The translations under genes and the position numbers were made by a program. Positions 4,072 to 56,559 of a stretch of 60,977 bases of DNA are shown here, piece after piece. Source of the DNA: a virus (taxonomy: Duplodnaviria; Caudoviricetes); IMG/VR virus record IMGVR_UViG_3300021519_000001, positions 1-60,977 of that record; one strand, 5' to 3'. Under the pieces are notes generated by a model. That model was not told where the DNA came from and did not search any database. It saw only the letters and a list, made by a program, of their open reading frames with translations. Each line of letters starts with the position of its first letter. Positions within the stretch are counted from its first letter, which is position 1.

Positions 4072-4254
4072 ATGGGACGAGCAACAAAAATGGCAGACGA
4101 TCAGTACCAAGGCGAAATTCAGCCCGGTGCTCAGAAACAAAACATGGCTAAAGGCGGCCCTAAGCAAACATCACGTAAGACAGTGGCTCCTTCTGGCTCC
4201 ACTACACCACGTGGTGTAGGCTTGGCTCGCAACAAGCCCTGCAAGATGTACTGA
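4072..4254 (+). CDS. Small basic protein with MAKGG motif
   Basis: 60 aa, AAGGAG RBS, RGxG-like C-terminus. Confidence 0.7.
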   Translation: MGRATKMADDQYQGEIQPGAQKQNMAKGGPKQTSRKTVAPSGSTTPRGVGLARNKPCKMY

Positions 4255-4255
4255 A

Positions 4256-4510
4256 ATGGCTAAGACTCCTGCTTGGCAGCGGAAAGAGGGCAAAAGTGCC
4301 AGTGGCGGTCTAAACGCCAAGGGCCGTGCTTCTTACAACAAAGCCAATCCGGGTAAACCCGGATTAAAGGCTCCGCAGCCAGAGGGGGGTCCTCGCAAAG
4401 ATAGCTTCTGTGCCCGTATGGAAGGCATGCGAAAGAAGAATACAAGCGAGAAGACCGCCAAGGATCCAGATAGCAGGATTAATAAAAGCTTACGGAAGTG
4501 GAAGTGCTAA
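4256..4510 (+). CDS. Small basic conserved phage protein (DUF6321-like)
   Basis: PAWQRKEGK...GGLN.KGR.SY...SFCARM...LRKWKC. Confidence 0.7.
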   Translation: MAKTPAWQRKEGKSASGGLNAKGRASYNKANPGKPGLKAPQPEGGPRKDSFCARMEGMRKKNTSEKTAKDPDSRINKSLRKWKC

Positions 4511-4759
4511 ATGGAACTGATGTTGTGGAACGTTGGCCTAACCGTTCTTATAGGTTTTGTTGGGTGGGTATTAAAGGATAAATCTGAAGAGCTTAACCGC
4601 CTTCAGATTTTGATAAACCGTACCCGCGAAGAACTTGCCAAAGAATACGTTACAAAGGCTGAAGTCCATGCGGACATTAACCGTGTTTTGGATAGACTAG
4701 ACAGGTTGGACGAAAAGTTAGACCGTTTAATGGGAGCAACAAATGCCCGCAGTCAGTAA
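4511..4759 (+). CDS. Membrane-anchored coiled-coil protein
   Basis: N-terminal TM helix followed by heptad-rich segment. Confidence 0.7.
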   Translation: MELMLWNVGLTVLIGFVGWVLKDKSEELNRLQILINRTREELAKEYVTKAEVHADINRVLDRLDRLDEKLDRLMGATNARSQ

Positions 4760-5096
4760 AAAACAAAAGAAGTTTATGGATGCAGCAGCGCACAATCCTG
4801 CATTTGCAAAAAAGGTTGGCATCCCACAGTCTGTGGCGATGGATTTTAGTAAGGCCAGTAAAGGCAAAAAATTTAGACAAGGTGGCGACATGAAACATGG
4901 ATACAAAGACGGCGGACTCGCAAAAAAAGGCGAAGGCATTGCCAAAAAAGGTTTTGCTAAAGGCGGCATGGTTGCTGGTGTAGGCCAGTCACAAGGCGAA
5001 ACGCTTAGCCAAAACGTTAAAAAGAGCGTTCAAGGCGATAAGGTTGCCGTTCGTGGTGTCGGTGCAGCACGTGCTCGCACAGCGATGATCTACTGA
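4743..5096 (+). CDS. Basic protein with three xxxGG motifs
   Basis: 117 aa, K-rich; FRQGG, YKDGG, FAKGG. Confidence 0.75.
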   Translation: MPAVSKKQKKFMDAAAHNPAFAKKVGIPQSVAMDFSKASKGKKFRQGGDMKHGYKDGGLAKKGEGIAKKGFAKGGMVAGVGQSQGETLSQNVKKSVQGDKVAVRGVGAARARTAMIY

Positions 5097-5097
5097 T

Positions 5098-5775
5098 ATG
5101 GCTGTTTCCGGCGTAACCAATTTTGATCTGCAGTTTGATGACCTCATAGCTGAGGCATATGAGCGCTGCGGTATTGAGGTGCGCGACGGTTACGACATGA
5201 AAACGGCGCTTCGCTCTGTTAATTTGATTTTTGCAGAGTGGGCAAACCGTGGTTTGAACCTTTGGACAATTGAGCAGCGCCAGCAGGTGTTGACGCCGGG
5301 CACGTATGAGTATGACCTGCCTTCAGACACCGTAGACGGCCTTTCAGCCGTGATTCGGACCAATGCAGGCCAGTCTACCCAGCAGGACATCACAATCGAC
5401 CGTATAGGCCGTGCTGAGTGGTTGCATGTGCCTAACAAGCTAACCCAGTCACGTCCTGCGCAGTACTATATCCAGCGCACAGTGCCGGCCAAGGTATTTT
5501 TGTATCCTTCTCCTGATTCAACGCAGACATGGACATTTGTCTACTATGCGATTCGCCGCATGGACAACGCGGGTGGGTTTACAAATACCGCAGACATTTC
5601 TTTTCGGTTCTTGCCTTGTTTAGCAGCAGCGTTGGCGTACTACTTGGCAGTGAAAAAAGCGCCTGATCGTGTCATGATGCTCAAGCAAATGTACGAAGAA
5701 GAGTTTATGCGTGCAGCTTCTGAAGACCGTGAGCGCTCGGGCTTCTTTGTGGTACCTACATATACGCAGAGGTAA
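5098..5775 (+). CDS. Head-tail adaptor / tail tubular protein A-like
   Basis: 225 aa; helical termini around beta core (G...Y.LP.D, YP.PD) typical of podovirus adaptors; position. Confidence 0.65.
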   Translation: MAVSGVTNFDLQFDDLIAEAYERCGIEVRDGYDMKTALRSVNLIFAEWANRGLNLWTIEQRQQVLTPGTYEYDLPSDTVDGLSAVIRTNAGQSTQQDITIDRIGRAEWLHVPNKLTQSRPAQYYIQRTVPAKVFLYPSPDSTQTWTFVYYAIRRMDNAGGFTNTADISFRFLPCLAAALAYYLAVKKAPDRVMMLKQMYEEEFMRAASEDRERSGFFVVPTYTQR

Positions 5776-5778
5776 CCC

Positions 5779-6947: not shown

Positions 6948-6950
6948 TAA

Positions 6951-7367: not shown

Positions 7368-7376
7368 GGAGCTTCT

Positions 7377-7940: not shown

Positions 7941-7941
7941 C

Positions 7942-8961: not shown

Positions 8962-8970
8962 GAGCAATAA

Positions 8971-9786: not shown

Positions 9787-9795
9787 GGAACTATC

Positions 9796-11430: not shown

Positions 11431-12546
11431 ATGCCTATTTATTCAGGAATGTGGACATCAAGGCAACAGATGCAGGCTCTTGCGGCTAGTCTTTGGCCTT
11501 CTGCTCCCGGTGCTCCCACCATTGGAACTGCTACGGCTGGGAATGCCTCTGCGTCTGTTACTTTTACAGCACCTAGCAATTTGGGTATTCCAGCAACCAT
11601 TACTGGCTACACAGTTACATCAAGCCCCGGTGGAATCACTGGTACAGGTTCAGCCTCCCCTATTACAGTATCTGGTTTGTCTAATGGGACGGCATACACG
11701 TTTACTGTAACCGCAACAAATGCATCAGGTACAGGGCCAGCAAGCGCGGCATCAAATAGCGTGACCCCTGTTCTAGCGTATATGGAATATTTGATTGTTG
11801 CTGGTGGTGGTGGCGGGTCAGGCGGAGGTGGTGGCGGTGGTGGTATGTTAACCGGAACAACTGTATTTTCAGGCTCTTACACAGTCACTGTAGGCGCTGG
11901 CGGAAGCCTAAATTATCAAGTTTATGGTAATGCCTCTCCCGGAACAAATTCTCTGATAACAGGACTAACTGCAATAGGCGGTGGTTTTGGTGCAGGGTCT
12001 ACCAATGTTGGCGGCTCTGGTGGTTCTGGCGGCGGTGCTTCAATTGGTTCTACAAGTACAGCGCAAGTTGTAGCAGGTGGAACGGCGACATCAGGGCAAG
12101 GATATAACGGCGGCACATCAACCAATACAGGTACTTACCAAGGCTGGCTAGGTGCTGGCGGTGGTGGGGCTGGTGCAGTTGGCGTTAGTGTTACAAACTA
12201 CGATACAGGAAATAGTTCGCCTTATGGCGGTCTTGGCGGAGCGGGCGCGGCATCGTCTATTGAGACAGGTTCTCCTGCTACTTATGCGGCTGGTGGTCAA
12301 GGTTACTACTCAAGCACCGTTAGCGGAGATGCCACAGGTAATTCAGGAAATGGTGGCGGTGGTTCTAGAACTGCTAATGCCGGAAGTCAAGGGTGGAATG
12401 GGGGTTCTGGTATTGTTGTCATTGCTTACCCAAATACGTATCCAGCCATTTCTTCAATTGGCGGTGGTTTAACATATACCCAACCAACTCGTGCTGGTTA
12501 TAGGGTATATAGATTTACTGCTGGTACAGGCACTATTACTTTCTAA
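11431..12546 (+). CDS. Fn3 plus glycine-rich tail fibre protein
   Basis: Fn3 signature; EYLIVAGGGGG...GGSGIVVIAY glycine-rich domain. Confidence 0.8.
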   Translation: MPIYSGMWTSRQQMQALAASLWPSAPGAPTIGTATAGNASASVTFTAPSNLGIPATITGYTVTSSPGGITGTGSASPITVSGLSNGTAYTFTVTATNASGTGPASAASNSVTPVLAYMEYLIVAGGGGGSGGGGGGGGMLTGTTVFSGSYTVTVGAGGSLNYQVYGNASPGTNSLITGLTAIGGGFGAGSTNVGGSGGSGGGASIGSTSTAQVVAGGTATSGQGYNGGTSTNTGTYQGWLGAGGGGAGAVGVSVTNYDTGNSSPYGGLGGAGAASSIETGSPATYAAGGQGYYSSTVSGDATGNSGNGGGGSRTANAGSQGWNGGSGIVVIAYPNTYPAISSIGGGLTYTQPTRAGYRVYRFTAGTGTITF

Positions 12547-12555: not shown

Positions 12556-12939
12556 ATGGCCCATTACGCATTTTTAGATTCAGACAACCGTGTTACCGAA
12601 GTCATTGTAGGCAAAGATGAAGGCGAAGGCGGTATTGATTGGGAGCAACACTACGGCGAGTTTCGTGGTCAGACTTGCAAGCGTACAAGCTACAACACTT
12701 ATGGCGGCGTTCATAACAACGGCGGCACACCATTACGTAAAAACTACGCTGGTATTGGCTACACATACGATGCTGGACGAGATGCTTTTATCCCGCCCAA
12801 GCCTTTTTTCTCTTGGGTATTAAACGAAACAAGTTGCACTTGGGAACCCCCAACACCAATGCCTGTTGAAGAAGGTAAAATTTTTCGTTGGAATGAGTCA
12901 ACCGTTTTATCTTCATGGGTTGAGGTGACTAATGTCTAA
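12556..12939 (+). CDS. Conserved tail fibre-associated protein
   Basis: MAHYA...TSYN...RKNYAGIGYTYD..RDAFIPPKP..SW. Confidence 0.75.
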   Translation: MAHYAFLDSDNRVTEVIVGKDEGEGGIDWEQHYGEFRGQTCKRTSYNTYGGVHNNGGTPLRKNYAGIGYTYDAGRDAFIPPKPFFSWVLNETSCTWEPPTPMPVEEGKIFRWNESTVLSSWVEVTNV

Positions 12940-13972
12940 GCAATATCCCGGTGGTCTAATAACCAAGACCCCCGTAACGCCCGGTGGCCCGTATCAAACA
13001 AGTACGGCTTCAGGTGTATGGACGCTAGAAGAACAAGCTTATTGGACAAAGCTAGGCCAATGGCCTACAGCAGGTAATGCTCTTCCAACAACAATTGATT
13101 TTCTTGTTATTGGTGGTGGTGGTTCTGGAGGTACTCAAAGTAATCGTGCGGGTGGTGGTGCGGGTGCTGGTGGCTATAGAACATCTTACGGCCCATCTGG
13201 TGGCGGGGGCGCGGCAGAATCTGCATTTGCATACACCCCTTCAACTAATTACACGGTAACAGTTGGCGCTGGCGGCGCAGCAATTACTGCGGCTCAAAAT
13301 GGAAATGTTGGTTCATCTTCAGTATTTAATGCTATTACTTCTGTTGGCGGCGGTGCAGGTGGTGGATATACTGAAGCTGGAGGCGGGTCTAAAAATGGCG
13401 CTTCAGGTGGAGGCTCAAGTGGTTATCAAACTGCTCAGAGCGGGCCTCCGGGAACAGGAACAGCAAACCAAGGTTATGCAGGCGGCACTGGTGTAGATGA
13501 TTATGGCAGTGGAGTCTCAGGTTTGGGCGGTGGCGGTGGCGGCGCAGGCGCTGTTGGGGGTAATGCAACAGGAACTTCTAGTGGCACGGCTGGCTCTGGT
13601 GGAACAGGTGTCGCATCAACTATTACTGGTACTTCTGTATTCCGAGCAGGTGGCGGTGGTGGTACTTGTTTAGGAAACCCCGGAACCCAAACTGCTGGTT
13701 CTGGTGGTGCTGGAGGCGGCGGGGCTGGCGCTAACACCAACATAACTCCAAATGGTGTAGCCGGGACTGCAAACACAGGTAGTGGCGGTGGCGGTGCTAA
13801 TAATAATTATGGTGGTTTATCTGGCGCTGGTGGTTCGGGTGTAGTTATTCTTAGATACGGTAGCACTCTCACAATCACAATTGGCGCTGGACTAACAGGC
13901 ACAACTGCTACAGATGGCGCTTTTAAGGTTACAACAATCACAGCAGGGACAGGTAATGTCTCTTGGGCGTAA
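12932..13972 (+). CDS. Glycine-rich tail fibre protein
   Basis: ASGVWTL N-terminal motif; DFLVIGGGGSGG...GGSGVVILRY. Confidence 0.8.
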   Translation: MSKQYPGGLITKTPVTPGGPYQTSTASGVWTLEEQAYWTKLGQWPTAGNALPTTIDFLVIGGGGSGGTQSNRAGGGAGAGGYRTSYGPSGGGGAAESAFAYTPSTNYTVTVGAGGAAITAAQNGNVGSSSVFNAITSVGGGAGGGYTEAGGGSKNGASGGGSSGYQTAQSGPPGTGTANQGYAGGTGVDDYGSGVSGLGGGGGGAGAVGGNATGTSSGTAGSGGTGVASTITGTSVFRAGGGGGTCLGNPGTQTAGSGGAGGGGAGANTNITPNGVAGTANTGSGGGGANNNYGGLSGAGGSGVVILRYGSTLTITIGAGLTGTTATDGAFKVTTITAGTGNVSWA

Positions 13973-17912: not shown

Positions 17913-18568
17913 GTTACATCATCACGTCTGAAACGGAGCTTAGCAAAATTGCGGCTCCTAGCTTGCCCTTGGCAACAACGGAATATAACCGCCAGTATCA
18001 AGACCAACTAAATAACGTTTTGCGGTTGTACTTCAACCGGTTGGATAACTTGCTGGCGCAGTTGGTTACATCTTCAGGAGGCGCTGGAATACGGCTTCCT
18101 TACGGGGCTTTTTCAAACTTTACATCTCAAACAACGACAGTTAATACAGCTACGTTGATGTCCCTAAACACCACGGACTTCTCAAACACGGTAACTTTAG
18201 TTACTGGCTCAAAGATGACGGTAGCAAACGCCGGTATTTATAACTTGCAGTTTAGCGCGCAGTTACAGAATTTGGATAACGCACCGCAAGATGTATTTAT
18301 CTGGCTTAAACAAAATGGCACAGACATAGTCGGTTCTACAGGGAAAGTTGGTATGCCCGCTAGAAAAAGTGCGGGTGTTCCGTTTCACGACATCAAAGGT
18401 TGGAACTACTTTTTGTCTATGAGCGCAGGCGATTACGTGCAAATTTATTGGTCTACAACCAATGCATCTGTAACCATAGAAACTTATGCGGCTTCTGGGA
18501 CACCAACTAAACCGTCTACAGCATCCGTCGTAGCTACACTTTCATTTGTGTCGGCGCTGCCAACGTAA
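17909..18568 (+). CDS. Tail needle/spike-like structural protein
   Basis: LRLYFN.LD coiled coil plus C1q/BclA-like beta C-terminus (GIYNLQFSAQ). Confidence 0.6.
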   Translation: MSYIITSETELSKIAAPSLPLATTEYNRQYQDQLNNVLRLYFNRLDNLLAQLVTSSGGAGIRLPYGAFSNFTSQTTTVNTATLMSLNTTDFSNTVTLVTGSKMTVANAGIYNLQFSAQLQNLDNAPQDVFIWLKQNGTDIVGSTGKVGMPARKSAGVPFHDIKGWNYFLSMSAGDYVQIYWSTTNASVTIETYAASGTPTKPSTASVVATLSFVSALPT

Positions 18569-18604
18569 TACAATCAAACAAACATTTTCCCCCAAGGAAG
18601 TAAC

Positions 18605-21600
18605 ATGGCCACAGCACCTCAAGCCCCAATGGAAACGCCACAACAAGGCGCAAATCCTTTTGCTGATCCTAATACGATGGCGGTGTATGACCAAATGCGT
18701 CAATCTGTGTCACCTAAGGAATTTGGCGATCAAGTTTTAGCGGGTGCTGAACAGGTTGATCCACAGGAAGTCGCTAAGTTCAAGTCTGCTTTAGATCAAA
18801 TTCAAATGCCTCCCGAGGCGCTTGATCTACTCAACAACATGGTTGATGAGATTCTGGCCAACCCAAAGCAGTATGCCCAGATCCGTGCCAAGTACAAAGA
18901 GATGGGTGCGCCTGACGAAATCTTGCCAGAGCAGTTTGATGCGCATTTTTTCAGTGCTTTGAACATGGCCGTAGACCAAATGATTGGCGCGCCCAGTGGT
19001 GAGCAAGCATTTGCTAAAGGCGGCATTGCCGAACTGACTCCTGTCTCCAAGGCCATTTCTAATTATGGTCGCAACGGTGACACCATGCTGGCCCACATCA
19101 CACCTGCCGAAGCACGCATGCTTCGTCGCAAGGGCGGTAGCGGCACGATCAATCCCAAAACGGGACTGCCCGAGTTCTTTAACTTGTTTAAGGAAATTGG
19201 CAACGCGTTTAAAGCAGTGGGCAATGTTGTTAAGGATTTTGCAAGCAGCACCGTCGGTCGTATTATTACAACCGTGGCCCTTGGCTTCTTTTTAGGCCCT
19301 GCAGCAGCAAGCTTCATGGGCGTAACTTCTGCTGCTGGTATTGCAGCCGTGAGCGGTTTTGTAGGTAGTGCAGGTGCTACGCTGGCCGGTGGCGGTAACT
19401 TGAGCCAAGCTTTGAAAGCTGGAGCTATTGGTGGTTTAACTGCAGGCGCAACAGTTGGTGTAACAGGTGGCGCTGGTGCTTTTGAAGCAGGCAGTGCTAC
19501 AACCCCCGGAGCCGCGTTCCAAGGTCAGTTGGACAAGTTCAGCAACTTCATGACACCTACGGCTTCCGGTATCCAAGCACCAAGCATCACGCCTACTGGC
19601 CAAGCCACGGGCATGGCTCCAGTACCAAGTTTGACAACAGATAGCATCACAACAACTGGTGCGCGTGATGCTGCTATGGTCAATAATCCATTAGGAGCCC
19701 CGCCTGTCGACGCTTCTTTTGGTAATCCACAAATACCAAAAGTAGCTAGTTTTGGTAGTCCTGTACCCATGGTCAATCCTGACTTTTCACCTGTGACTGG
19801 TGCAGGGTCCGGGGCTCCCGGAACAACCTCATTTGGCAGCAATCCTGCGGTGCAGTTTGACAGAAGCATGATGCCCGACTCGTTTGGTGCGCCTTCTGCC
19901 AGTGCAACTACTGCTGCAACAGGCAACACTATTGCACCGCCTATTCAATCGGCCCCTCCAATCCAAGCAGGTCCTTATGCCACCCCCGGCATAGGAGATT
20001 CTTTGTCTACTGCCGGCAAAGGCATTATGCAAATGATGCCCGGCACAGAAGGTACTTTTTCTCAAGGTCTTGAAAACTTTACAAAAGGTGCTGGCGACTT
20101 ATTTAGTCCCGGACCTACTTCTGAACAACTCACTGCACGCGCCAAAGATATACTGGGTACAGATACGACAGGAAAAATGACGTATGCCGATGCCTTAAAA
20201 GCGGCAAACTCAGAAACTGGCGTTTTGCGTACTTACGGTCCTGCAACCGCTGCTGGTATTGCAGCAATCGGTGCTTTTGGTGGGTTTAGTCCATCTAAAG
20301 TACCTCAGTCCGCACTTAAAACAACACTGCTCGGGGGCCCCGGATCAGCAAAAGATTTGCTTAAAACAGATCCTTATCGTTTTTACATTCAGGGTTTACC
20401 CGGTGTTCAGTACTACAACGGTTCTGTGATCAAGCCTCCCGGCATGGCTACAGGCGGTGAAGTTCAGCATTTTGAAGATGGTGGACCTGCTACTGCTACT
20501 GATCAGCAAGTGGCGGATTGGTGGGCTACAAATAGCGATAAAGGTTATTCCGATAATCAAATTGCGGCAATGATGGATCAATATGGTGTTACGCCAGAGC
20601 AGTTTGCACGATCTATTGGTGCAAATGAATCAGTTGCAGCGGACATTGCTAGTCGTTATCAATCTGCAGAGAATGCCGGTACTGATCCAAGTATTCTTCT
20701 TGGAGGTGCGCCTGCAGGAACTACGACTACCACAACAAGTGGTGGCGGCAATGATGTAGTTACAAACGTTACAGGTGGTGGTGGTGGAATTACAGATTTG
20801 GTTACCGATGCGGGAACCACAAACGTTACAGGTGGTGGAATTACAGATTTGGGTACTGGCGGCGGTAACACACGCTCTGCTTCCGATCAAGCCATTTGGA
20901 ACTACTTTGCTAACAATACCAATTTGACAGATGCGCAAATTGTGGCGGCAATGAATGCCAATAAGTGGAATATCAATGATGTTGCCCGCGTTACTGGCAC
21001 AACAGCAAATCTTGATGACTTTAATCGCCGGATTGCTGCTGTTAATGCTGCAAACAATACCACCACAACAACCGTCAGCACCGGAACTGGAACAGGTACC
21101 ACTACACGTTCTGCTGCAGATCAAGCCATTTTTAATTTCTTTCTTACTCCCGGCCTAACTGACGCACAAATTGTTGCAGCAATGGATGCCAATAAATGGA
21201 CAATTGGCGATATTGCTCGTGTTACGGGCACCACTAGTCAGTTGGATGATTTTAATCGCCGGATTGCTGCTGTTAGAAATAAAACTACAGGTACAGGTAC
21301 AGGTATTAGCGTTAGCACCAACACAAGCATTATTAGGACTACAAATACAAGTACTAACACAAGTACCGGAACAAGCACTGGAGTTACCACAACCCCCGGC
21401 GGTTTAACTAGTATTCAAGCGCCTTGGTTCATCAACCCACAGACCTTTGCTCAAGGCACTAAAGGCGTCACTGTGCCGTCTTCTACTTTGCGCAATACAA
21501 CAAATCTTCCTACAGATGCGTTGTCCCGCACCATTCAAGGCGATCTGCAAGCGGCAGGCCCCACTGTTACCAACCAAACAATGCAAGAGTGGATGGATTC

Positions 21601-22255
21601 GCGTGGATGGAAACCTGAGCAAGTGGCTTATGCTACAGGCGCAGGTTTGCCTGAAGTACAAGGACGTTATTACGGGGCTAAAAATGCTGGTATTTTGCAA
21701 GGCAATGCGCCCAGCACTACTCCAATTACCCAGCCATACAACAATACGACCGGCATTACACAGCTAATGTCACCTACAGGTCCTTTGGGCGAGTTCAGCA
21801 CCCGCACGGTGACGCCCGTAACTCCCGTGCTTCCTACTGCGCCTACAACATCAGCGCTTCCTGCCGTGTCGTTTAATCGCACGGACATTCAGCGTATGCT
21901 GCCTAACATTCCAAACGCTAACCCAACAACACCATTAAATGTTTTGGCGGGTAATCCTAGCCAATATGGTGTAACAGGCTACACAGATGCTTACTCACCT
22001 TTTGCAAATCAAGCTAAATTAATGAACATGGGTGGTATTGCAGGATTGGCTCAAGGAGGTTATCCTAGACGGAACGGTCAAATTGAGGGCCCGGGGACCG
22101 AGACCTCTGATTCAATCCCTGCAATGCTGTCTGACGGCGAATTCGTAATGACTGCTAAGGCTGTTCGCGCAGCAGGCAAAGGCGACAGACGCGCAGGCGC
22201 AAAACGCATGTATGCGTTAATGCATCAACTTGAACAAAACGCAGCACGAGGTTAA
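18605..22255 (+). CDS. Internal virion/ejection protein (1216 aa)
   Basis: GRNGDTMLAHI...GTINPKTGLPEF domain, Gly/Ala hydrophobic segment, internal repeats, C-terminal GPGTETSDSIPAMLSDGEFV domain. Confidence 0.75.
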   Translation: MATAPQAPMETPQQGANPFADPNTMAVYDQMRQSVSPKEFGDQVLAGAEQVDPQEVAKFKSALDQIQMPPEALDLLNNMVDEILANPKQYAQIRAKYKEMGAPDEILPEQFDAHFFSALNMAVDQMIGAPSGEQAFAKGGIAELTPVSKAISNYGRNGDTMLAHITPAEARMLRRKGGSGTINPKTGLPEFFNLFKEIGNAFKAVGNVVKDFASSTVGRIITTVALGFFLGPAAASFMGVTSAAGIAAVSGFVGSAGATLAGGGNLSQALKAGAIGGLTAGATVGVTGGAGAFEAGSATTPGAAFQGQLDKFSNFMTPTASGIQAPSITPTGQATGMAPVPSLTTDSITTTGARDAAMVNNPLGAPPVDASFGNPQIPKVASFGSPVPMVNPDFSPVTGAGSGAPGTTSFGSNPAVQFDRSMMPDSFGAPSASATTAATGNTIAPPIQSAPPIQAGPYATPGIGDSLSTAGKGIMQMMPGTEGTFSQGLENFTKGAGDLFSPGPTSEQLTARAKDILGTDTTGKMTYADALKAANSETGVLRTYGPATAAGIAAIGAFGGFSPSKVPQSALKTTLLGGPGSAKDLLKTDPYRFYIQGLPGVQYYNGSVIKPPGMATGGEVQHFEDGGPATATDQQVADWWATNSDKGYSDNQIAAMMDQYGVTPEQFARSIGANESVAADIASRYQSAENAGTDPSILLGGAPAGTTTTTTSGGGNDVVTNVTGGGGGITDLVTDAGTTNVTGGGITDLGTGGGNTRSASDQAIWNYFANNTNLTDAQIVAAMNANKWNINDVARVTGTTANLDDFNRRIAAVNAANNTTTTTVSTGTGTGTTTRSAADQAIFNFFLTPGLTDAQIVAAMDANKWTIGDIARVTGTTSQLDDFNRRIAAVRNKTTGTGTGISVSTNTSIIRTTNTSTNTSTGTSTGVTTTPGGLTSIQAPWFINPQTFAQGTKGVTVPSSTLRNTTNLPTDALSRTIQGDLQAAGPTVTNQTMQEWMDSRGWKPEQVAYATGAGLPEVQGRYYGAKNAGILQGNAPSTTPITQPYNNTTGITQLMSPTGPLGEFSTRTVTPVTPVLPTAPTTSALPAVSFNRTDIQRMLPNIPNANPTTPLNVLAGNPSQYGVTGYTDAYSPFANQAKLMNMGGIAGLAQGGYPRRNGQIEGPGTETSDSIPAMLSDGEFVMTAKAVRAAGKGDRRAGAKRMYALMHQLEQNAARG

Positions 22256-44715: not shown

Positions 44716-44955
44716 ATGAAATTATCAGTTGATTTACTTGACAATCATGTCAAGAGTGCAGTCGTCGACATTGGTGCAAACAATGGCTATGTTGAGGTCT
44801 TTGTATCGGGGGGTGTTGTGCATCTCAATGTGTTTAATAAAGGTGGTGACGTAGTCCATGACTATGCCATCACCACTGCAGACCTAAGGAAGAACTTGGG
44901 TAAAGGTTCCACTACCCCTAAGTTTGAGCCCGCTCAAGAACACTACGAAGACTAG
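44716..44955 (+). CDS. Early hypothetical protein
   Basis: 79 aa, AGAAAG-type RBS. Confidence 0.7.
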   Translation: MKLSVDLLDNHVKSAVVDIGANNGYVEVFVSGGVVHLNVFNKGGDVVHDYAITTADLRKNLGKGSTTPKFEPAQEHYED

Positions 44956-50289: not shown

Positions 50290-51759
50290 ATGCACTCTAC
50301 AAAACCCGATGACGTACAAGACGAACAGCTTCGCCTAGAGCTACGCTTAAAACTCTTGGAGGCGCAGGAACGTGCAACCACTGATTTCCTGTCTTTCTGT
50401 CAATACGTCTGGCCCGAGATGCTTGTTGGGGAACACCACAAACGTATCGCCAAGGCCCTTGATCGTGTAATAACCGGCGAGTGCAAACGCCTGATGATTG
50501 CGATGCCTCCCCGTCATGGCAAGTCCCAGCTTGGCAGCTACCTGTTCCCGGCGTATCTTATGGGTAGAAACCCTGACACCAAACTTATTGTCGGCTCCCA
50601 CACCGCGGAGCTTGCTCAACGCTTTGGTAGGATGATCCGTAACCTTGTTGACGACGAGAAATACAAAGAGTTGTTCCCAAAGATGGCCCTGTCAGTTGAC
50701 AGTAAGGCTGCCGGTCGGTGGAACACGTCTCAAGGCGGTGAAGCGTTTTTTATTGGTAAGGGCGGTGCGATGACGGGCCGTGGTGGTAATGTTGTTGTAC
50801 TTGACGATATTTTGGACGAGCAGGATGCTGTGTCTGAAACTGCGATGGAGAACACGTGGGAGTGGTACACGTCCGGTCCTCGCCAGCGTTTGCAACCGGG
50901 CGGTGCAATCATTGTCATTAATACTCGGTGGAAGACCGACGACCTTTCTGGCCGCTTGCTCAAGCAGCAGGGCTATTTAAAGTCAGACCAGTGGGAGGTG
51001 TTGGAGTTCCCTGCCATTTTGCCTAGTGGTAAACCCTTGTGGCCCGATTACTGGAGCCTTGATGAGTTAGAAAAAGTCAAGGTATCTATTGGTTTGAAGA
51101 AGTGGAACGCCCAGTGGCAGCAGCAGCCAACGAATGATGAAGGTGCGATCCTGAAGCGTAACTGGTGGCGCAAGTGGAAGTACGATGATCCACCAGAGTG
51201 TGAGTATCTGATTCAGGTATACGACACGGCGTACTCAAAGAAAGAGACTGCTGACTTCTCTGTTATTAGTACGTGGGGCGTGTTCTATCCTGATGCTGAC
51301 TCTGGTGCAAATTTGATGCTGCTTAATGTGCGCAAAGGCCGTTGGGATTTTCCTGAGCTAAAGCGCATGGCTAAAGATGAATACATGTATTGGAAGCCGG
51401 ACAATGTTTTGATTGAGGCAAAAGCTACTGGCACGCCCTTGCAGCAGGAACTGCGTAAAATGGGTATTCCTGTCACGATGTTCTCCCCGGGCGGCCGTAG
51501 GTCTGGTCAGGACAAAGTCAGCCGCGCCAATGCCGTGGCCCCGCTCCTTGAGTCTGGAATGATCTGGTATCCAGAGGGACAGGAGTGGGCCGAGGACCTT
51601 GTAGAGGAATGTGCGGCTTTTCCTAATGGGAACAATGACGACCAAGTGGATACTGCGGTGATGGCTTGGACAAGATTTCGTGCGGGTAACTTTATTGCGT
51701 TGGACACGGATGATAATGAAGAAGACGAGCCGGATACAACACCTGTTGAGTATTATTGA
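50290..51759 (+). CDS. terL: Terminase large subunit
   Basis: MPPRHGKS Walker A, LDD Walker B, DTA...AD.S, IE.KA.G, FP.G..DDQVD. Confidence 0.95.
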   Translation: MHSTKPDDVQDEQLRLELRLKLLEAQERATTDFLSFCQYVWPEMLVGEHHKRIAKALDRVITGECKRLMIAMPPRHGKSQLGSYLFPAYLMGRNPDTKLIVGSHTAELAQRFGRMIRNLVDDEKYKELFPKMALSVDSKAAGRWNTSQGGEAFFIGKGGAMTGRGGNVVVLDDILDEQDAVSETAMENTWEWYTSGPRQRLQPGGAIIVINTRWKTDDLSGRLLKQQGYLKSDQWEVLEFPAILPSGKPLWPDYWSLDELEKVKVSIGLKKWNAQWQQQPTNDEGAILKRNWWRKWKYDDPPECEYLIQVYDTAYSKKETADFSVISTWGVFYPDADSGANLMLLNVRKGRWDFPELKRMAKDEYMYWKPDNVLIEAKATGTPLQQELRKMGIPVTMFSPGGRRSGQDKVSRANAVAPLLESGMIWYPEGQEWAEDLVEECAAFPNGNNDDQVDTAVMAWTRFRAGNFIALDTDDNEEDEPDTTPVEYY

Positions 51760-51804
51760 AATGCCGCATAAAATGTCTTGAATATTTGACGAGGACCTCG
51801 GACC

Positions 51805-54800
51805 ATGGCCCAACAGACGTTTGAAGAGATAGTTGCTGCTGTAAAGCAAGCGGAGAGCCGCGGCAAGCGCTACAAGGATGACGGTAAAACTCTGACCACC
51901 AGTCCCAAGGGTGCCCTTGGTGAGATGCAGGTCATGCCCAAGACCATTACAAATCCCGGCTTTGGTGTAACCCCTGCTAAGGATAAGTCCCCGGACGAGA
52001 TTGCGCGTGTAGGTCGTGACTATTTGCAGGCCATGAAGCAAAAGTATGGTGATACGGACAAAGCTTTGGTTGCGTATAACATGGGCCCGGGAGCCACGGA
52101 CAAATGGTTAGCTGCTGGTGCTGATCCAAAGAAACTGCCGGAAGAAACCAGAACGTATGTTCAGCGCGTCAATGGATTGCTTGGCGGAAATGTTTCACGT
52201 GAAACATCTGTTGCAAAGACAGAACCTACTCCTGCCGAAGAGATCATGACCAAGGCCCTTCCTGCGGGGACCACGGCCCAAGCTATGCCAAAAGACGAAG
52301 TCAAGACTTTGGCAAAGATGGATGTCAAGGAAATGCCTGCCAGTTATCAAGCCGCTTTTGCTTTAGCGGCTTTGGCAGATGCGCAGGACGAAGAAGACGA
52401 CAGGGTATACAACGAGAACAAGGGCACGGAAACGGAAGCTTTCTTTGCCAACTACAAGCCTGTCAATCATTTGGCATCGCTTGATTTAAGCGTCAAACCT
52501 TTAACGTTCAAAGAAGGTGGGGAAGTAGATGCTGAAGATTTAAGCAAACCATCCTTTGGCAATCCTAATATCAGAAAGCAAGGCGAGGCAGCAAGGAGAC
52601 TTGCTGCTTTGCGGGATGTCAACACATTACCCGACCCTAAAACATATGCCGTAGCTTCTGGTCTGATGGGCACGGCCCCTGATCAGATGGGGTTCAGTGT
52701 GATGCATCCTAAGTACAAAGAGATTATGGATGTAGCCAATCCTGCTTTTGCGGCGGGTACAGCGCTGCAAATTGCCCCTGTTGCACAGGGTCCCGGCATG
52801 GGACGTATGGTGGGTGCAGCGGAAAAAGCTTTGGAGCCAGCGGTGCGTAGGACGCTGGAAGGTGGAGGTAAGGCTTCGCAAATGTTGCAAGATTTGGCGG
52901 CTCCTCCTTCGCAAATGTTTGTTCGTGCAAGGCCGGAAGCAGCAGCGCGGCACGCGGACCTGCAGGCGCAAGGCTTGTCACCAGAACAAATCCGTGCGCA
53001 GAATTTAACTTTGGTTGATAACCGCGGTAATTTGCTGGAAGAGATCAGTGATGCGCCGGCAGTTTTGCAGCAAAAGACTGCCTCTGTTCCACGTATGTAC
53101 TACGATATGTTAAAGCATCCCGAACTTCAAAGCATTTATCCAGCATATGACATGCCTGATGTGCGGATAGGAACAACAAGGCGCAAAAATGCCCCGTTAG
53201 CTGCGGCGTCTTTTGGGGAGAAAGAAGGAATTCAAGGAACAGTGCGTAGTTTGCCGGGTGATGATGTTAGGGGCACGGTCCGCGGAACTTTATTGCACGA
53301 GGGCCAGCATGCAATCCAGTCCATGGAAGGCTTTACAGAGGGTGCAAACCCTAGTTCTTTTGTTGCTTACGTTAAAGCAAAGCGCGGTATATACGATGCT
53401 GATCCTACGGTCAACGAAAATGTTATTCGAGAAATGGAGAGGGTGTATCCAAATTTGTCTGACATTACAGACAGGATAGGGCAGGATCTTAAAGCTAGGT
53501 ATGGCAAAGTTTTTCCTTCAGACAAACGCATGGGAGAAGCTTTGTACAGGCACATGCCGGGGGAGGTGCAGGCAGAGTTGGCTCGTATTCGCAGTAACTT
53601 GACGCCGGACGAGCTTAAAGCAACGCCGCTTGAAGTGTCTATGCAGCAATTAAATATTAATCCTGCCAATATTTTAGAAATGAACAAAATGGGTTCACGC
53701 CTTGACAGGCAGATTGGTGATCTGGAATATGATGTTTATGGCTACGCGCAAGGCGGTCCTGTGTATCGTGCAGATGGCAGTCCTGAAGAAGGCGAGCGCA
53801 AGTTAGACCGTGAAACAATGGATATGTTGCGCAGGCAAGGTACATCTCCTGCGTCGTTACAACGAGTGGCTCCTCCTGCTGACATAAGTTCTTCTGCGGC
53901 AGGTTTGCCCGGATTGATGTTGTTTGCCGATCCACGCATTGACCAGACTAATGCGTATGGCTACATGTTGGATGGTGGGGATGATACAAAAAACCGTGCC
54001 ATGGCTCAGGCAATGTTTTTAAACAAAAGTAGATCAGAAGACTACCCCGATACGATTGCGCATGAAACAGAACATTTGTTGGCACGTCAGAATTTAGGAT
54101 CTGCGGCTAATATTAATAGTAAGTTTGATGAGTTGATAGGGAATAAGGGCACTTCTCGTCTTAATTTTGTTAGAGACGCCGTTAAAGCTGCCCCTTACTT
54201 AAAAGAAAAATACGACCTGCAGTCTAGCTATCTTGATCCAAAAATGTTTGAGTATCAATCTAAATTTGGTTTGGGCAAAAACCTTTTGTATGAGCAATTG
54301 GCTTCTTTAGCTGCGTTGGAGCAGCGCCACAAGATAGATTTGACCAAAGATCCGGAGTTGCGTAAGACTTTGTTCTCACGTCCCGATGTCCGCGAGACGT
54401 ATAACGCCCTTACTGGTCTGCGTCAAACGCGCCTAGACCCACGGGACTTGCCCCCACACACACGCGTACCTGAACCCGGCATGTTAGATGCAGTTAAAAA
54501 GGTTTTTAAGCGTGCCGATGGCGGGATGGTGTACCGCGCAGACGGAAGTCCTGAAGAAGGCGAGCGTTTGACCCCGCAGCAGATAGAACGAATCGCGGCC
54601 CAAGAATCAGCAGAGCGTGAAGCAGCAAGCAATGCTGCATTTATTGCGCAGAAGTCCGGTATTGGTCGCAAGGCAGGCCCTGTTTCTCAAGCGTTGCAGT
54701 CTGGTCAGGGGCAGATAGAGTTTCTTAAAGGCATGACCAACGTACCGCAGAATATTTTGGGTGCGCCGATGGATATTTCCAACATGATTGCCGGCATATA

Positions 54801-56559
54801 CGGTGGTAATGTTGAAAAGCCGTTTATGGGCAGTGAGTATCTGAAGGAAAAATCACGGGCCGCGGGCCTAGGGTTTACCCCATCTACCGACCCAACGCTG
54901 GCTGGTTTCTACGGTGCTGGTGATTTAGGTAGTAACCTTGTCAATCCTGCCGGCGTTGCGCGCACGGGTGTAAAAGCAGCGGAAAAAACAGGGGAAGCAG
55001 CCAAGATGTTGGCCCGTGATTTCCAAGGTTACAACCAGCAGTTGGCTGTTCCCGGTGCTTCGTATGCGGTTCGTAATAAGGGCACACCTGTTGCTATGAC
55101 AGGGCTTCCATTTTTGCCTAATGTTGATGAAGCAGAAAAGGTAGTCAAGAATGTGACAATTGGCCAAATGAAAGAACCTTTGGCAGTAAAGGATAAATCT
55201 TTAAACGATTGGTTTTCAAAAACGGTTACGCGATATCTTCGTTCAGATTTTGCAACACCTCAAGATCAGTTGGTCAGGGCTGCAGAGGAGGGCAAGATGT
55301 TGCACCTTGCTCCTAAGGAATTTTCTGATTCGGCAGAAGATCAAGCACTTAAACATTTTTTAGGCCGTAGACAATCTGATTTAGAGTACATGCGTCAAGC
55401 AGAAGGGTTTGGTAAATCCAATATGGCAACGCAGCCATATGGACAACGTATAGAAGACATAACAGATATTTCTGCGTATCCGGAAAGGGTGGGGGATTTA
55501 ACACCTAACAGGGTGCCTGCAAGCATGCGCAATCTTGTAGAAACTCAGCCCGAAGCACGGGTAACGGATTTTGCGCCCAACATAGTAGAAAACCTAAAGT
55601 TAGAACAGTTGCGGGACAAGATGCTGGATGTTCGTCAATCAGGAGGAACATATGGGGCATATGGCCAGCCTGCCGCTAAAATACCTTCAGAGTTTTTGTT
55701 ACCAGACGATACCTTGGCAAAATTAAATGTTGCAGCAGCTTCTAATCGGATGGCGCGGTATACAAAGTGGCAAGATGAAACTAGGCAGAAGATGGCCACT
55801 ACGGCTCTGCGCTCGGATCCTGAGTTTCCAAGAGCGGAGTTACAGGAAGGTAAGTTTTTAGGTGTTGCATTGCCTAATATTAAGAAAAACCCACAAATTA
55901 AACAACTGGTTACTGATGTGGGATGCGATGGTGGGTGGTGCACAAGGTACACACCAAACGCTGAAGCCTATGCCTCTGGGTTTAGTCGACTGCATGTGAT
56001 AGTAACGGGAGAAGGCAAACAAGCGCGCCCTGTTGCCCAGTTTGCTATTGCTGATTCTGGCCCATCCTATGATACAAAGCGTTTTTCTATTACTGAGGTA
56101 AAAGAAAAAGGAAACACAAAAGATTTTGCAAACAATCCAGCGCTTCCCGCAATTCAAGAATACATCCAGTACCTTGACAAAACATACGGTGGCCTTGATT
56201 ATGTGGACAATTTAAAAGGGCTACGTTTGACAGCCTTGCCTGAATACCCAATGCAACTGTTAGATTTGTTTAAACCTACTGTTCAACAAAGAAGGATGTT
56301 GGAAAACAAATATGGTAGTGAGGAAAACGGCTTAAGGGCAGTCAGGGACAAAGCAGTTGATTTAAACAATGGATCTCGGTTCATGACGGGAAATGAGGAC
56401 AAGGTTGCTAATACGCTTGAGCAAGCTATGCAACTACTTGTCGGTCCAAAAGAAACCTTAGCACGCCGAATCCAAATGAATTTATTTGGACTTCCCAAAG
56501 AAAAGGCGCATGGGGGTATGATCGAGCGCCAACCCAACGATAACCGCAGATATCTGTAA
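51805..56559 (+). CDS. Large modular (polyvalent-type) virion protein: SLT transglycosylase + two HExxH metallopeptidase-like modules + PcfJ-like module
   Basis: AES...S.KGA.G.MQ.MP...AYN.G; LLHEGQH..Q...GE..A; AHETEH; GWCT; repeated VYRADGSPEEGER junctions. Confidence 0.75.
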   Translation: MAQQTFEEIVAAVKQAESRGKRYKDDGKTLTTSPKGALGEMQVMPKTITNPGFGVTPAKDKSPDEIARVGRDYLQAMKQKYGDTDKALVAYNMGPGATDKWLAAGADPKKLPEETRTYVQRVNGLLGGNVSRETSVAKTEPTPAEEIMTKALPAGTTAQAMPKDEVKTLAKMDVKEMPASYQAAFALAALADAQDEEDDRVYNENKGTETEAFFANYKPVNHLASLDLSVKPLTFKEGGEVDAEDLSKPSFGNPNIRKQGEAARRLAALRDVNTLPDPKTYAVASGLMGTAPDQMGFSVMHPKYKEIMDVANPAFAAGTALQIAPVAQGPGMGRMVGAAEKALEPAVRRTLEGGGKASQMLQDLAAPPSQMFVRARPEAAARHADLQAQGLSPEQIRAQNLTLVDNRGNLLEEISDAPAVLQQKTASVPRMYYDMLKHPELQSIYPAYDMPDVRIGTTRRKNAPLAAASFGEKEGIQGTVRSLPGDDVRGTVRGTLLHEGQHAIQSMEGFTEGANPSSFVAYVKAKRGIYDADPTVNENVIREMERVYPNLSDITDRIGQDLKARYGKVFPSDKRMGEALYRHMPGEVQAELARIRSNLTPDELKATPLEVSMQQLNINPANILEMNKMGSRLDRQIGDLEYDVYGYAQGGPVYRADGSPEEGERKLDRETMDMLRRQGTSPASLQRVAPPADISSSAAGLPGLMLFADPRIDQTNAYGYMLDGGDDTKNRAMAQAMFLNKSRSEDYPDTIAHETEHLLARQNLGSAANINSKFDELIGNKGTSRLNFVRDAVKAAPYLKEKYDLQSSYLDPKMFEYQSKFGLGKNLLYEQLASLAALEQRHKIDLTKDPELRKTLFSRPDVRETYNALTGLRQTRLDPRDLPPHTRVPEPGMLDAVKKVFKRADGGMVYRADGSPEEGERLTPQQIERIAAQESAEREAASNAAFIAQKSGIGRKAGPVSQALQSGQGQIEFLKGMTNVPQNILGAPMDISNMIAGIYGGNVEKPFMGSEYLKEKSRAAGLGFTPSTDPTLAGFYGAGDLGSNLVNPAGVARTGVKAAEKTGEAAKMLARDFQGYNQQLAVPGASYAVRNKGTPVAMTGLPFLPNVDEAEKVVKNVTIGQMKEPLAVKDKSLNDWFSKTVTRYLRSDFATPQDQLVRAAEEGKMLHLAPKEFSDSAEDQALKHFLGRRQSDLEYMRQAEGFGKSNMATQPYGQRIEDITDISAYPERVGDLTPNRVPASMRNLVETQPEARVTDFAPNIVENLKLEQLRDKMLDVRQSGGTYGAYGQPAAKIPSEFLLPDDTLAKLNVAAASNRMARYTKWQDETRQKMATTALRSDPEFPRAELQEGKFLGVALPNIKKNPQIKQLVTDVGCDGGWCTRYTPNAEAYASGFSRLHVIVTGEGKQARPVAQFAIADSGPSYDTKRFSITEVKEKGNTKDFANNPALPAIQEYIQYLDKTYGGLDYVDNLKGLRLTALPEYPMQLLDLFKPTVQQRRMLENKYGSEENGLRAVRDKAVDLNNGSRFMTGNEDKVANTLEQAMQLLVGPKETLARRIQMNLFGLPKEKAHGGMIERQPNDNRRYL

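Follow-up and report, generated by a model that had tools for sequence, protein, structure and literature searches.

The question raised by this locus is whether a short Gly-Gly peptide recurring in several late proteins of a phage is a functional signal and, if so, what it does for the proteins that carry it. The window, meaning the whole 60,977-nucleotide stretch of viral DNA analysed, was described in the initial annotation as encoding 13 such pentapeptides, and all 13 were found in place, within four open reading frames on the + strand, 4072-4254 (p60), 4743-5096 (p117), 18605-22255 (p1216) and 51805-56559 (p1584). A better consensus than the earlier pentapeptide regular expression is [FYM]-A-x-G-G-x-[VIA], to which 8 of the 13 sites conform strictly. 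In RADGGMV and KAHGGMI a basic first residue is the sole deviation, as it is in many tails in relatives. The earlier expression also matches RRKGG (19124), LAGGG (19382) and LEGGG (52855) inside the four proteins, and seven sites in five of the other 78 ORFs of a crude 82-ORF set.

Gly- and Lys-rich low-complexity sequence may yield accidental pentapeptides that a degenerate, post hoc expression would then catch. Using the earlier expression, 16 matches were observed in the four proteins against 2.6 expected, none of 300 per-protein shuffles reaching 16, and the remaining proteome gave 7 against 8.4 expected in the same number of per-protein shuffles; this test is itself post hoc, the expression having been fitted after the sites were seen. 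With 5000 shuffles per protein, p1216 (7 observed versus 0.99 expected, 0/5000 shuffles) was the sole protein to survive an 82-fold correction. The values for p117 and p1584 were p = 0.0036 and p = 0.0062, and the copy in p60 taken alone was not significant (p = 0.08). Gly-rich fibre-like ORFs also match the earlier expression, and an unrelated acidic 79-aa ORF of the early region has two strict matches. As judged from sequence statistics, the decisive support against chance comes from the relatives and not from the window alone.

The portal has 596 relatives in IMG/VR, and 80 portal-related loci were sampled, with 200 per-protein shuffles. The variable giant gene between terminase and portal, the 'cargo' class, contained 114 motifs against 7.0 expected (maximum 15), and the small (≤145 aa) downstream proteins 75 against 4.0 (maximum 10), an enrichment of roughly 16-19-fold confined to these two classes. 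Large downstream proteins had 10 motifs against 7.2 expected, genes upstream of TerL 0 against 1.0 and TerL 1 against 1.1, so that in the 80 loci no other gene class was enriched, save for one conserved portal site. An unbiased profile anchored on GG gave F/Y/M at -3 (2.5-5.6x), A at -2 and V/A two residues past GG, in the cargo and small-protein classes only; these preferences are missing in the control classes. Among the p117 homologues listed, 120/120 have at least one strict copy (2400 homologues in all), and 34/34 p1216-like ejection proteins have one to four copies. Enrichment over a shuffled background in related phages and positional conservation in homologues, both proposed beforehand as checks, were therefore found. 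The chance reading is refuted as far as sequence statistics reach and must be considered extremely improbable. The motif exists, is specific to its classes, is conserved and lies at junctions, and it is very probably a real, selected, class-specific signal, common, as had been proposed, to particular late proteins: the TerL-portal gene, the small basic head-module proteins and the first ejection or tape measure protein (TMP)-like protein.

The longest carrier, p1584 (51805..56559, + strand), is a variable multi-domain cargo protein encoded between TerL (50290-51759) and the portal (56569-58953), both assigned from PHROGs. Cargo gene products in relatives range from 260 to 2039 aa and show extreme domain variability. 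The protein has four copies of the earlier list and a C-terminal tail; its N-terminal part matches a PHROG 'virion structural protein', and its N-terminus is an SLT lytic transglycosylase (residues 7-105, Pfam SLT, E 1.6e-12). The copy FKEGGEV (52507..52527) closes this conserved N-terminal part, and the block ..LASLDLSV.P.. upstream of it is joined to five different downstream sequences in relatives. There are two HExxH cassettes, with HEGQH at residue 498 and HETEH at residue 753. For residues 380-646 the ESM Atlas gave a lead to LPD23 clusters (score 0.94); in Pfam, DUF6782 alone appeared for LPD or metallopeptidase families (E 0.089, under the family cut-off), and a fold search gave no match at E≤0.001.

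The cassette at about residues 666-902 (53800..54510) is a separate gene of 255-260 aa in three relatives (L031, L033 and L034), and H124, E125, E127 and H128 are invariant in the alignment; no Pfam family and no fold match was found for it. The stand-alone genes have the C-terminus F-A-D/G-G-G-A-V plus tail, and this motif-and-tail end coincides exactly with RADGGMV (54511..54531) of p1584, its positional equivalent. In p1584 the cassette is preceded by YAQGGPV (53743..53763) and closed by RADGGMV, each followed by YRADGSPEEGER. A 47-nt direct repeat (53752-53798 and 54520-54566) is 83% identical, and wherever its copies differ within the codons of the shared peptide the change is synonymous. 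Since the repeat copies differ mainly by synonymous changes, the linker peptide beside the motif is under selection. In the AF2 model YAQGGPV lies in a stretch with pLDDT 26-34, and the two motif copies flanking the cassette together span 26-47 compared with 63-92 for the cassette core. The protein ends in KAHGGMIERQPNDNRRYL (56503..56556), an element consisting of the motif and a conserved basic tail.

The small basic protein p117 (4743..5096, + strand) has an N-terminal domain (phrog_16759) which, like that of p1584, matches a PHROG 'virion structural protein'. Its copies, FRQGG (4872), YKDGGLA (4902) and FAKGGMV (4953), lie in a K/G-rich stretch, and its tail VRGVGAARARTAMIY (5049-5093) is near-invariant in 24 aligned homologues. 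The second small basic protein, p60 (4072..4254, + strand), has a weak copy, MAKGGPK, at 4144 and the tail PRGVGLARNKPCKMY (4207-4251). Both tails are of the RGVG.AR...Y-end type, so the four carriers, which had been called otherwise unrelated, are so only in part: p60 and p117 have this C-terminal tail in common.

The head module also encodes a GroES/Cpn10-like protein (59332..59790, + strand; Pfam Cpn10, E 9.8e-10), outside the motif set, with the loop KTKGGIEL. That the motif mimics a GroES mobile loop and tethers these large or unfolded proteins to host GroEL, together with the phage GroES-like protein encoded beside the portal, is a reading that we consider very unlikely. Relatives, too, have a Cpn10 gene in their head module, and the mobile loops of these proteins (K-T-K/A-G-G-I/V-..) match the loose motif expression. 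Judging by the title of a paper on T5, the host is reportedly involved in tail-protein cleavage. However, the GroES mobile loop is defined by Gly followed by three small hydrophobic residues (PMC5649160), and of the distinct motif sites just 3/99 in cargo and 13/64 in small proteins are hydrophobic at all three positions; Glu is the commonest residue past GG in cargo (40/99).

The fourth carrier, p1216 (18605..22255, + strand), is the first protein of the ejection-protein block, with a TMP-like C-terminus and five copies of the earlier list; an adjoining 369-aa protein matches a PHROG 'DNA ejection protein'. Residues 1140-1193 match PHROG tape-measure families (E 4.5e-8 to 9.5e-6), and the orthologue in DSL-LC04 is annotated as a tail tape measure protein. 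A tape-measure role is nevertheless unlikely, and p1216 is not filed as such here, because the relatives HTVC023P and HTVC027P are Pelagibacter phages which we take to be short-tailed and because the adaptor protein of DSL-LC04 is annotated as Pam1-like. The copy FAKGGIA (19010..19030) opens a conserved module (..GRNGDTMLAHITP..GGSGTINPKTGLPEFF) and is kept in 24/24 unfused orthologues among those listed, as well as in DSL-LC04. Copies had been said often to come in tandem pairs, and they do in p1216, for example MATGGEV-QH-FEDGGPA (20444..20491) at the start of its variable middle region; in relatives this pair, or a single copy, is retained although the downstream sequence differs.

At the C-terminus, MNMGGIA-GLAQGGYP is followed by a module containing ..GPGTETSDSIPAMLSDGEFVMT.. 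and by two helices (22022..22252). LAQGG stands ahead of the module and MNMGG 8 residues before LAQGG, and the motif part lies below pLDDT 50 in the AF2 model. This module, for which the copy of Pfam searched has no family, was found in 10,097 cluster representatives at E≤1e-3 and is C-terminal in nearly all of the 150 representatives listed. Its pattern is G-G-x-[IV]-x-G-x-G-T-x-x-S-D-S-[IV/M]-x-A-x-[LV]-S-x-G-E-F-[VI]. Sequence matches in the PDB are the TMPs of Douge (gp16; 8zdo_S, 1.6e-6) and JBD30 (gp46; 8rk3_A, 4.1e-4), and the C-terminus of lambda gpH aligns weakly (hhalign E 4.7e-4, probability 33%). The motif precedes the module in JBD30 (F-A-S-G-G) and lambda (F-A-T-G-G) too, and P0086 has four modules, each opening [KYF]-A-x-G-G-x-[IV]-x-G-P-G...

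A canonical module that starts with the motif, four times over in P0086, would be consistent with a passive relic, left over from the strand or turn that comes first in the widespread TMP-type module and kept as a flexible Gly-Gly joint, perhaps a small beta-turn, in which domain shuffling is tolerated and which nothing recognises specifically. The location in stretches predicted to be disordered and at recombination joints fits as well. However, a mere joint would have no need of F/Y/M at -3, A at -2 or V at +2, all of them kept in the 88 distinct heptamers that the 114 cargo sites comprise. Linkers seldom contain aromatic residues, and small basic proteins that are unrelated have acquired or retained this same pattern. 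We regard a passive hinge as rather improbable.

That the motif sits at domain boundaries, as first suggested, was confirmed by sequence clusters at the junctions, by fusion/fission mapping and by AF2 pLDDT. Clustering of the sequences on either side of the 114 cargo sites gave 76 upstream and 82 downstream clusters, and 12 upstream clusters are each joined to at least two different downstream clusters; the motif is located in the joints where homology to other proteins stops. When the ends of shorter cargo genes were compared with longer ones, 13/27 mapped onto an internal motif of the longer gene (2.2 expected, maximum 6 in 200 randomisations). The corresponding test of N-terminal boundaries gave no enrichment (2/31 versus 2.1 expected), many of the 'starts' in it having arisen artificially because ORFs were called from ATG on truncated contigs. 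At the C-terminal end, a copy lies within the last 34 residues in 53/83 distinct cargo C-termini, and the full tail GG-x-[VIM]-[ED]-[RK]...[YF]-x-end is present in 40/83, after at least four different upstream domains; in 33, exactly 13 residues follow the last GG. Small proteins are alike, with an [IVMFYK][YCF] C-terminus in 29/58 of those bearing the motif and 51/266 of those without it. Cargo proteins that have no tail carry N-terminal copies instead, and some cargo proteins have triple copies in their first 60 residues.

The motif-bearing proteins are most likely inside the virion, given their gene positions, their PHROG matches and the precedent of phi24B, whose gp47 was detected in virions (preprint). 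The explanation that we favour, though tentatively, is that the motif delimits units and is a site of processing in proteins that the virion carries and ejects. In this podovirus and a large clade of relatives, the TerL-portal multi-domain protein, the small basic head-module proteins and the first ejection (TMP-like) protein would be packed in the virion and ejected. Each functional unit is a domain closed by the motif; what follows is either a short basic tail at the C-terminus or, where proteins are fused, a linker and then the following domain. The motif would mark the position of a cut made during or after assembly. Multi-domain cargo would thereby come apart into separate units, and a C-terminal piece would be removed from the TMP-like protein, as happens in lambda gpH and T5 pb2. 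Because no phage protease is recognisable, the cutting activity would be host-encoded or autocatalytic.

The main rival, which we find possible but somewhat doubtful, is that the motif, with or without the basic tail, is a docking or encapsidation tag that binds a putative conserved head component (the portal, a scaffold-like 305-aa protein or the capsid interior); the carriers would be loaded into the procapsid and left uncut, multiple copies providing avidity. The class distribution is identical to that behind the processing reading. The frequency of C-terminal copies and full tails, the resemblance of the small proteins' C-termini and the N-terminal copies of tail-less cargo all favour a docking tag, and tandem pairs, triple copies and the three copies within 45 residues of p117 fit avidity better than cutting. 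The tail past the last copy is itself conserved, which also tells against processing. The T4 capsid-targeting sequence and the binding of SPP1 gp7/MuF to the portal are precedents. However, one tag would be enough after gene fusion, yet internal copies are retained, and the same motif opens the module in the TMPs of siphophages (lambda, JBD30, Douge). These are assembled in tails and not in heads, and thus one common head receptor cannot explain all contexts.

Several further results weigh against processing. The N-terminal boundaries are not enriched, and around the portal of more distant relatives the motif is sparse or absent: RW has none there except the GroES loop, CRP-901 one loose match and the conserved portal site, and HTVC023P one motif. 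The initial annotation recognised no conventional prohead protease, and this stands. In six-frame searches of S78, S77, S49, ClpP, M23, Prok-JAB, C39 and C48 no match was found at E≤1, and Pfam searches of 10 head-module proteins gave no protease, only Cpn10 and the coiled-coil-like 305-aa protein. The suggested analogy to adenovirus- and ASFV-type di-glycine proteases was not upheld, as the clan-CE family tested (C48) is absent; the Gly-Gly cysteine peptidases covered were C48 (clan CE) and C39. HExxH is present in only 9/28 complete cargo sets, so a zincin embedded in the cargo cannot serve as the general enzyme.

The precedents for cutting are lambda gpH and T5 pb2. It had been noted that F/Y-A-T-G-G motifs occur near the processed C-terminus of lambda gpH, and this is correct, with FATGG at 733 and YATGG at 778 (PMC12617516). 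A C-terminal piece of ∼14 kDa is cut from a Gly-rich region, and according to that paper neither the site nor the enzyme is known (PMC12617516). FATGG (733) is beside or within that region, and a cut at F733/A734 would leave a computed piece of 12.5 kDa. The T5 pb2 sequence reads ..FVPR1127/AEGGMMY.., and cleavage is placed after R1127 (PMC10038345), though earlier work put it at V1148±1 (PMC11937520) and the site is disputed; homology of pb2 to the p1216 module is not demonstrable (hhalign E 0.46). R1127 is also a tryptic site. If T5 is a guide, the cut would fall before A-x-G-G rather than after G-G.

It is conceivable, if unlikely, that one widespread activity, host-encoded or self-catalysed in motif and module, matures all ejected tailed-phage proteins. 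Lambda gpH would then be cut at a predicted F733/A734 and T5 pb2 at R1127/A1128 under one code, by which polyvalent cargo would also be split into units and small basic internal proteins trimmed; it would amount to a general 'ejectosome maturation code' without a phage protease. How proteins are chosen for loading into virions, and how giant injected proteins are released as units, is known for only a few model phages, all of which have a protease of their own. In the present clade, which is large and mostly uncultured, the putative loaded set is marked by a simple motif that can be searched for. This motif delimits exchangeable domain cassettes and ties them to a module found in at least 10,097 protein clusters. 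Whether it serves processing or docking, it offers a testable handle on the loading and release of injected proteins, and a concrete prediction for the 50-year-old question of the lambda gpH cleavage site. If it is a loading tag instead, it would offer a means of packaging proteins of choice into phage particles.

Among known systems, lambda gpH and T5 pb2 resemble p1216 in being long proteins ejected before the DNA, with the motif near the C-terminus, a short conserved module and terminal helices. They are converted to gpH* and gpHC and to pb2* and pb2C, as a cut at this element or close to it removes some 90-130 C-terminal residues. Such proteolytic release is known for lambda and T5 only and is assumed by analogy for JBD30. 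The phage of the window differs from lambda and T5 in being short-tailed and in having the motif without the module in head-module proteins and the cargo protein.

Adenovirus and ASFV proteases have Gly-Gly maturation sites, and C39 peptidases recognise double-glycine leaders. The likeness lies in Gly-Gly with an upstream hydrophobic residue, found in small basic core proteins and polyproteins; however, in the present motif the hydrophobic residue is one position further from GG, Val past GG is conserved and, on the T5 precedent, the cut would precede A-x-G-G. T4 capsid targeting likewise uses a short peptide common to unrelated internal proteins as a head address linked to cleavage, and phiKZ-like phages have analogous propeptides. 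T4 capsid targeting comes with a prohead protease, whereas none was found in the window (S77, S78, S49 and CLP_protease in six frames; Pfam), and the T4 signal is a single N-terminal peptide whereas the motif is internal, C-terminal or repeated and of other sequence.

The closest counterparts of p1584 are the large polyvalent proteins of Iyer et al. 2017 (PMC5512222), with which phi24B gp47 is grouped here. The text of that paper that was searched contains neither 'glycine' nor 'linker' and describes no joint motif, and it ascribes processing to an embedded metallopeptidase (PMC5512222), whereas HExxH is found here in just those 9/28 cargo sets. Like p1584, these are giant multi-domain late proteins encoded beside the portal and terminase, with a lysozyme-type domain and HExxH cassettes, and p1584 unites effector-type domains of several unrelated kinds in a single late polypeptide linked to the portal, as a polyvalent protein does. 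They are predicted to be packaged, injected and processed into units (PMC5512222).

All 13 pentapeptides that the initial annotation had listed in p60 (4072-4254), p117 (4743-5096), p1216 (18605-22255) and p1584 (51805-56559), all on the plus strand, were found where it had placed them. Its expression, [FYMLKR]-[AKERN]-x-G-G, gives 16 sites in these four proteins, and a further seven are spread over five ORFs among the remaining 78. Composition-preserving shuffling, a post hoc test within the window, led to an expectation of 2.6 sites for the 16 observed in the four proteins and of 8.4 for the seven observed in the remaining ORFs, and p1216 alone was significant after correction for 82 ORFs. 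Most of the non-specific matches stem from paralogous Gly-rich proteins of the tail region (11431-12546 and 12932-13972; 33 and 42 GG dipeptides; phrog_2295). An acidic 79-aa ORF of the early region (44716-44955) contains two strict motif matches, FVSGGVV and FNKGGDV (shuffling p ~0.0002), without basic tail or linker context; they are probably an unrelated strand-turn-strand sequence.

The relatives, not the window alone, settle that the motif, [FYM]-A-x-G-G-x-[VIA], is real. A portal tblastn search gave as relatives Phage DSL-LC04, at 64% identity, Pelagibacter phages HTVC027P and HTVC023P, Roseobacter phages CRP-901/902, Caulobacter phage RW and Planktothrix phage Pag-Yong1. A scan of IMG/VR found 596 portal relatives, and the best 80 loci were kept for counting the pattern [FYM]xxGGx[VIA] against a background of 200 shuffles per protein. 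The gene class between TerL and portal (the cargo class, p1584 in the window) had 114 sites with 7.0 expected, and downstream proteins of up to 145 aa had 75 with 4.0 expected. The figures were 10 and 7.2 for larger downstream proteins, 1 and 1.1 for TerL and 0 and 1.0 for genes upstream of TerL, while the portal's 40 matches are a single orthologous site, LMP[AS]GGPVR. Enrichment over a composition-matched background, on which the initial annotation had made its proposal depend, is present in the cargo and small-protein classes, and chance is excluded as the origin of the motif as far as statistics can show. When a profile was built around every isolated GG in dereplicated contexts, preferences for F/Y/M at -3, Ala at -2 and Val/Ala at GG+2 appeared in these two classes only.

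Positional conservation in homologues, another point on which the proposal was to stand, was seen in both families considered. All 34 p1216-like proteins carry one to four copies (34 of 50 loci, hand-picked for enough upstream sequence, the other 16 being short or truncated), and at least one copy is present in 120 of the 120 p117 homologues listed among 2400 found. In DSL-LC04 the protein in the slot between TerL and portal is non-homologous, 'PcfJ-like' and 825 aa long, and bears three copies within residues 1-60; the motif also occurs there in five small basic proteins, in the p1216 orthologue and in an ejection-block protein of 645 aa. Distant relatives have fewer copies: three in two proteins ahead of the adaptor in Pag-Yong1, one in HTVC023P, essentially none in CRP-901 and none in RW within the +-9 kb read.

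The window record is complete (60,977 bp, with terminal repeats). Its late order begins with TerL (50290-51759) and continues with p1584 (1584 aa, N-terminal SLT domain), the portal (56569-58953), a 61-aa protein, a GroES-like protein, a 305-aa coiled-coil-like protein, the major capsid protein (961-1872), a run of small basic proteins including p60 and p117, then the adaptor, tail genes and a 702-aa virion protein, and lastly an ejection block of 1216 (p1216), 369, 791 and 1124 aa, which PHROGs relates to tape-measure and DNA-ejection proteins. Pfam searches of p60, p117, p1216, seven segments of p1584 and p1216, and the 791- and 1124-aa proteins gave only SLT above the cut-offs, and Megablast with 15804-22255 found no match in the phage collection. 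Two minus-strand ORFs at 2211-3018 break into the plus-strand head module, and the translation of one has a Cys/His pattern resembling that of an HNH nuclease. The small basic protein at 4256-4510 belongs to DUF6321 (Pfam E 5.9e-18) and ends ..RKWKC; this domain with the same ending also closes a cargo-class protein of one relative and recurs in the HTVC023P protein bearing a motif copy. From gene context, the PHROG labels and the precedent of polyvalent gp47, reported in phi24B virions in a 2026 preprint, we infer that the motif proteins are located in the virion.

The GroES/Cpn10-like gene (59332-59790) is flanked by the portal and scaffold-like genes, has a 47-residue acidic N-terminal extension and is kept in HTVC023P, RW, Pag-Yong1 and DSL-LC04; in its mobile loop the second residue after GG is Glu. 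A phage with its own GroES gene invites the idea that the motif mimics the GroES loop, and Zweig and Cummings (1973) reportedly implicated host chaperonins in phage assembly, a hint in the same direction. However, the three-hydrophobic rule failed at most sites, for which such mimicry was rejected, and the idea is regarded as very improbable.

The 114 cargo sites comprise 88 distinct heptamers with 76 upstream and 82 downstream clusters, and 12 upstream clusters run into at least two unrelated downstream sequences. The proposed placing of the motif at domain boundaries is thereby borne out, the cargo sites lying where one sequence unit meets the next. In p1584, YAQGGPV-YRADGSPEEGER and RADGGMV-YRADGSPEEGER stand on either side of one HExxH cassette (residues about 666-902); they are encoded by a 47-nt direct repeat (53752-53798 and 54520-54566, 83% identical) whose differences are synonymous where it codes for the shared peptide. 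This repeat, between whose copies the 256-residue cassette lies, could provide a recombination route for cassette loss or gain. In three related loci (L031, L033 and L034) the cassette is a separate gene of 255-260 aa, starting at a ..SP..E..LD element and ending F-A-D/G-G-G-A-V-ERQ..D.R.YL-stop, and its C-terminal motif aligns with the internal motif of p1584. The end of a shorter cargo gene falls on a motif inside a longer one in 13 of 27 cases versus 2.2 expected; the matching N-terminal test found no enrichment (2 of 31 versus 2.1 expected) and is unreliable owing to truncated ORFs. An AF2 model of the cassette (10 relatives) had a mean pLDDT of 57.9, with 63-92 in the helical core and 26-47 in both motif-bearing flanks, and gave no Foldseek match in the PDB at E<=0.001.

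The preferred reading, tentative and somewhat short of an even chance, is that the motif is a processing site: copies would delimit units and processing would occur at them. A processing site would explain both the internal copies retained after fusion and the copies coinciding with gene ends. It also fits the tape-measure proteins, for which cuts near a copy of the motif are on record. A passive hinge or relic would leave the conserved flanking residues unexplained and is considered unlikely. Weighing against a processing site is the lack of a recognisable phage protease, as already remarked for prohead proteases in the initial annotation and now found with Pfam on the head-module proteins and a six-frame search for eight families. 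Iyer et al. (PMC5512222, in part) predict a need for such processing in polyvalent proteins, in line with a processing site, although the role is assigned there to an embedded metallopeptidase. HExxH occurs in only 9 of 28 cargo sets, which also weighs against a processing site, and an embedded zincin as general protease was rejected on this count.

Of the 83 distinct cargo C-termini, 53 have a motif copy within their last 34 residues. The tail GG-x-[VIM]-[ED]-[RK]..D.R.[YF]-x-stop is found in 40 of the 83, ending exactly 13 residues past GG in 33, and occurs on several unrelated upstream domains; the small basic proteins have related basic tails finishing -IY or -IC. Repeated copies and a conserved tail both speak against a processing site and suit its main rival, a docking tag, which is possible but rather doubtful. 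Complex prediction with the portal (26-row alignment) and the last 85 residues of p1584 (36-row alignment) scored 0.00, without a verdict. The GG, E/R and Y are invariant in the tail alignment because 35 of its 36 rows were picked by a regular expression demanding the tail.

At the C-terminus of p1216 (22046-22252) the motif opens a module, ..GG-Y-..-GPGT.TSDSIPAMLSDGEFV.. plus two helices, with the pattern GG..GPGT.TSDSIPA.LS.GEFV ahead of the helices. The 85-residue piece with this module matched 10,097 cluster representatives at E<=1e-3 and 1574 at <=1e-10, lies at the C-terminus of almost every one of the 150 matches listed, and has no family in the Pfam copy searched. One 2334-aa match has four module copies, with [KYF]-A-x-G-G ahead of each. 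AF2 on the last 85 aa of p1216 (19 short matches from the 150 listed) gave a mean pLDDT of 59, below 50 in the motif region. A second conserved p1216 module (..GRNGDTMLAHITPAEARMLRRKGGSGTINPKTGLPEFF) follows the first motif copy at 19025-19200; it is duplicated in some orthologues (L089-L091, positions about 136 and 612) and is 39-45% identical to sequence in two unrelated 'Manatee Spring' phage records. Two tandem repeats of ~55 residues (20870-21290; ..SA.DQAI.N.F....LTDAQIVAAM.ANKW.I.D.ARVTGTT..LDDFNRRIAAV) have Thr/Gly-rich runs between them.

The C-terminal module matches the tape-measure proteins of mycobacteriophage Douge and of JBD30, for which the published account, as far as consulted, describes just the last 33 residues as resolved (PMC11445458), the module region being unresolved in the tail structure. 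The match to lambda gpH is weak (hhalign E 4.7e-4). The F/Y-A-T-G-G that the initial annotation placed near the processed gpH C-terminus was indeed found, as ..KFHF-ATGG-FTGTGG..GEFVF.. at 733 and YATGG at 778. According to passages of PMC12617516, gpH loses a ~14 kDa piece from its Gly-rich C-terminal region by a cleavage whose site and catalyst are unknown; a cut at F733/A734 would yield a computed 12.5 kDa. T5 pb2 reads ..FVPR1127-AEGGMMYPGVSYQMGEHGTEVV.., and Linares et al. place its cut after R1127 (PMC10038345, in part); a published reply, likewise seen in part, gives the earlier estimate as V1148+-1 and notes that R1127 is a tryptic site (PMC11937520). Since pb2 has five GG dipeptides in 1219 residues, a reported cut two residues from its sole motif-like GG is unlikely by chance (roughly 3%, an estimate). 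The module and the pb2 C-terminus showed no significant hhalign match.

No published description of the motif was found in the literature, though supplementary alignments may show it. Literal motif strings retrieved, among the matches listed, irrelevant word fragments only; the words 'glycine' and 'linker' are both absent from the passages searched of PMC5512222, and in the ejection-protein review PMC8954989 'glycine' is absent and 'motif' occurs once, in an unrelated connection. We rate virion-protein addressing or processing signals as the known kin of the motif. The small ejected proteins gp6.7 and gp7.3 of T7 are Gly-rich and have zero strict motifs; the GG-LAGLA-GG of gp7.3 resembles the GG-IAGLAQ-GG of p1216 (22031-22066), just ahead of its module.
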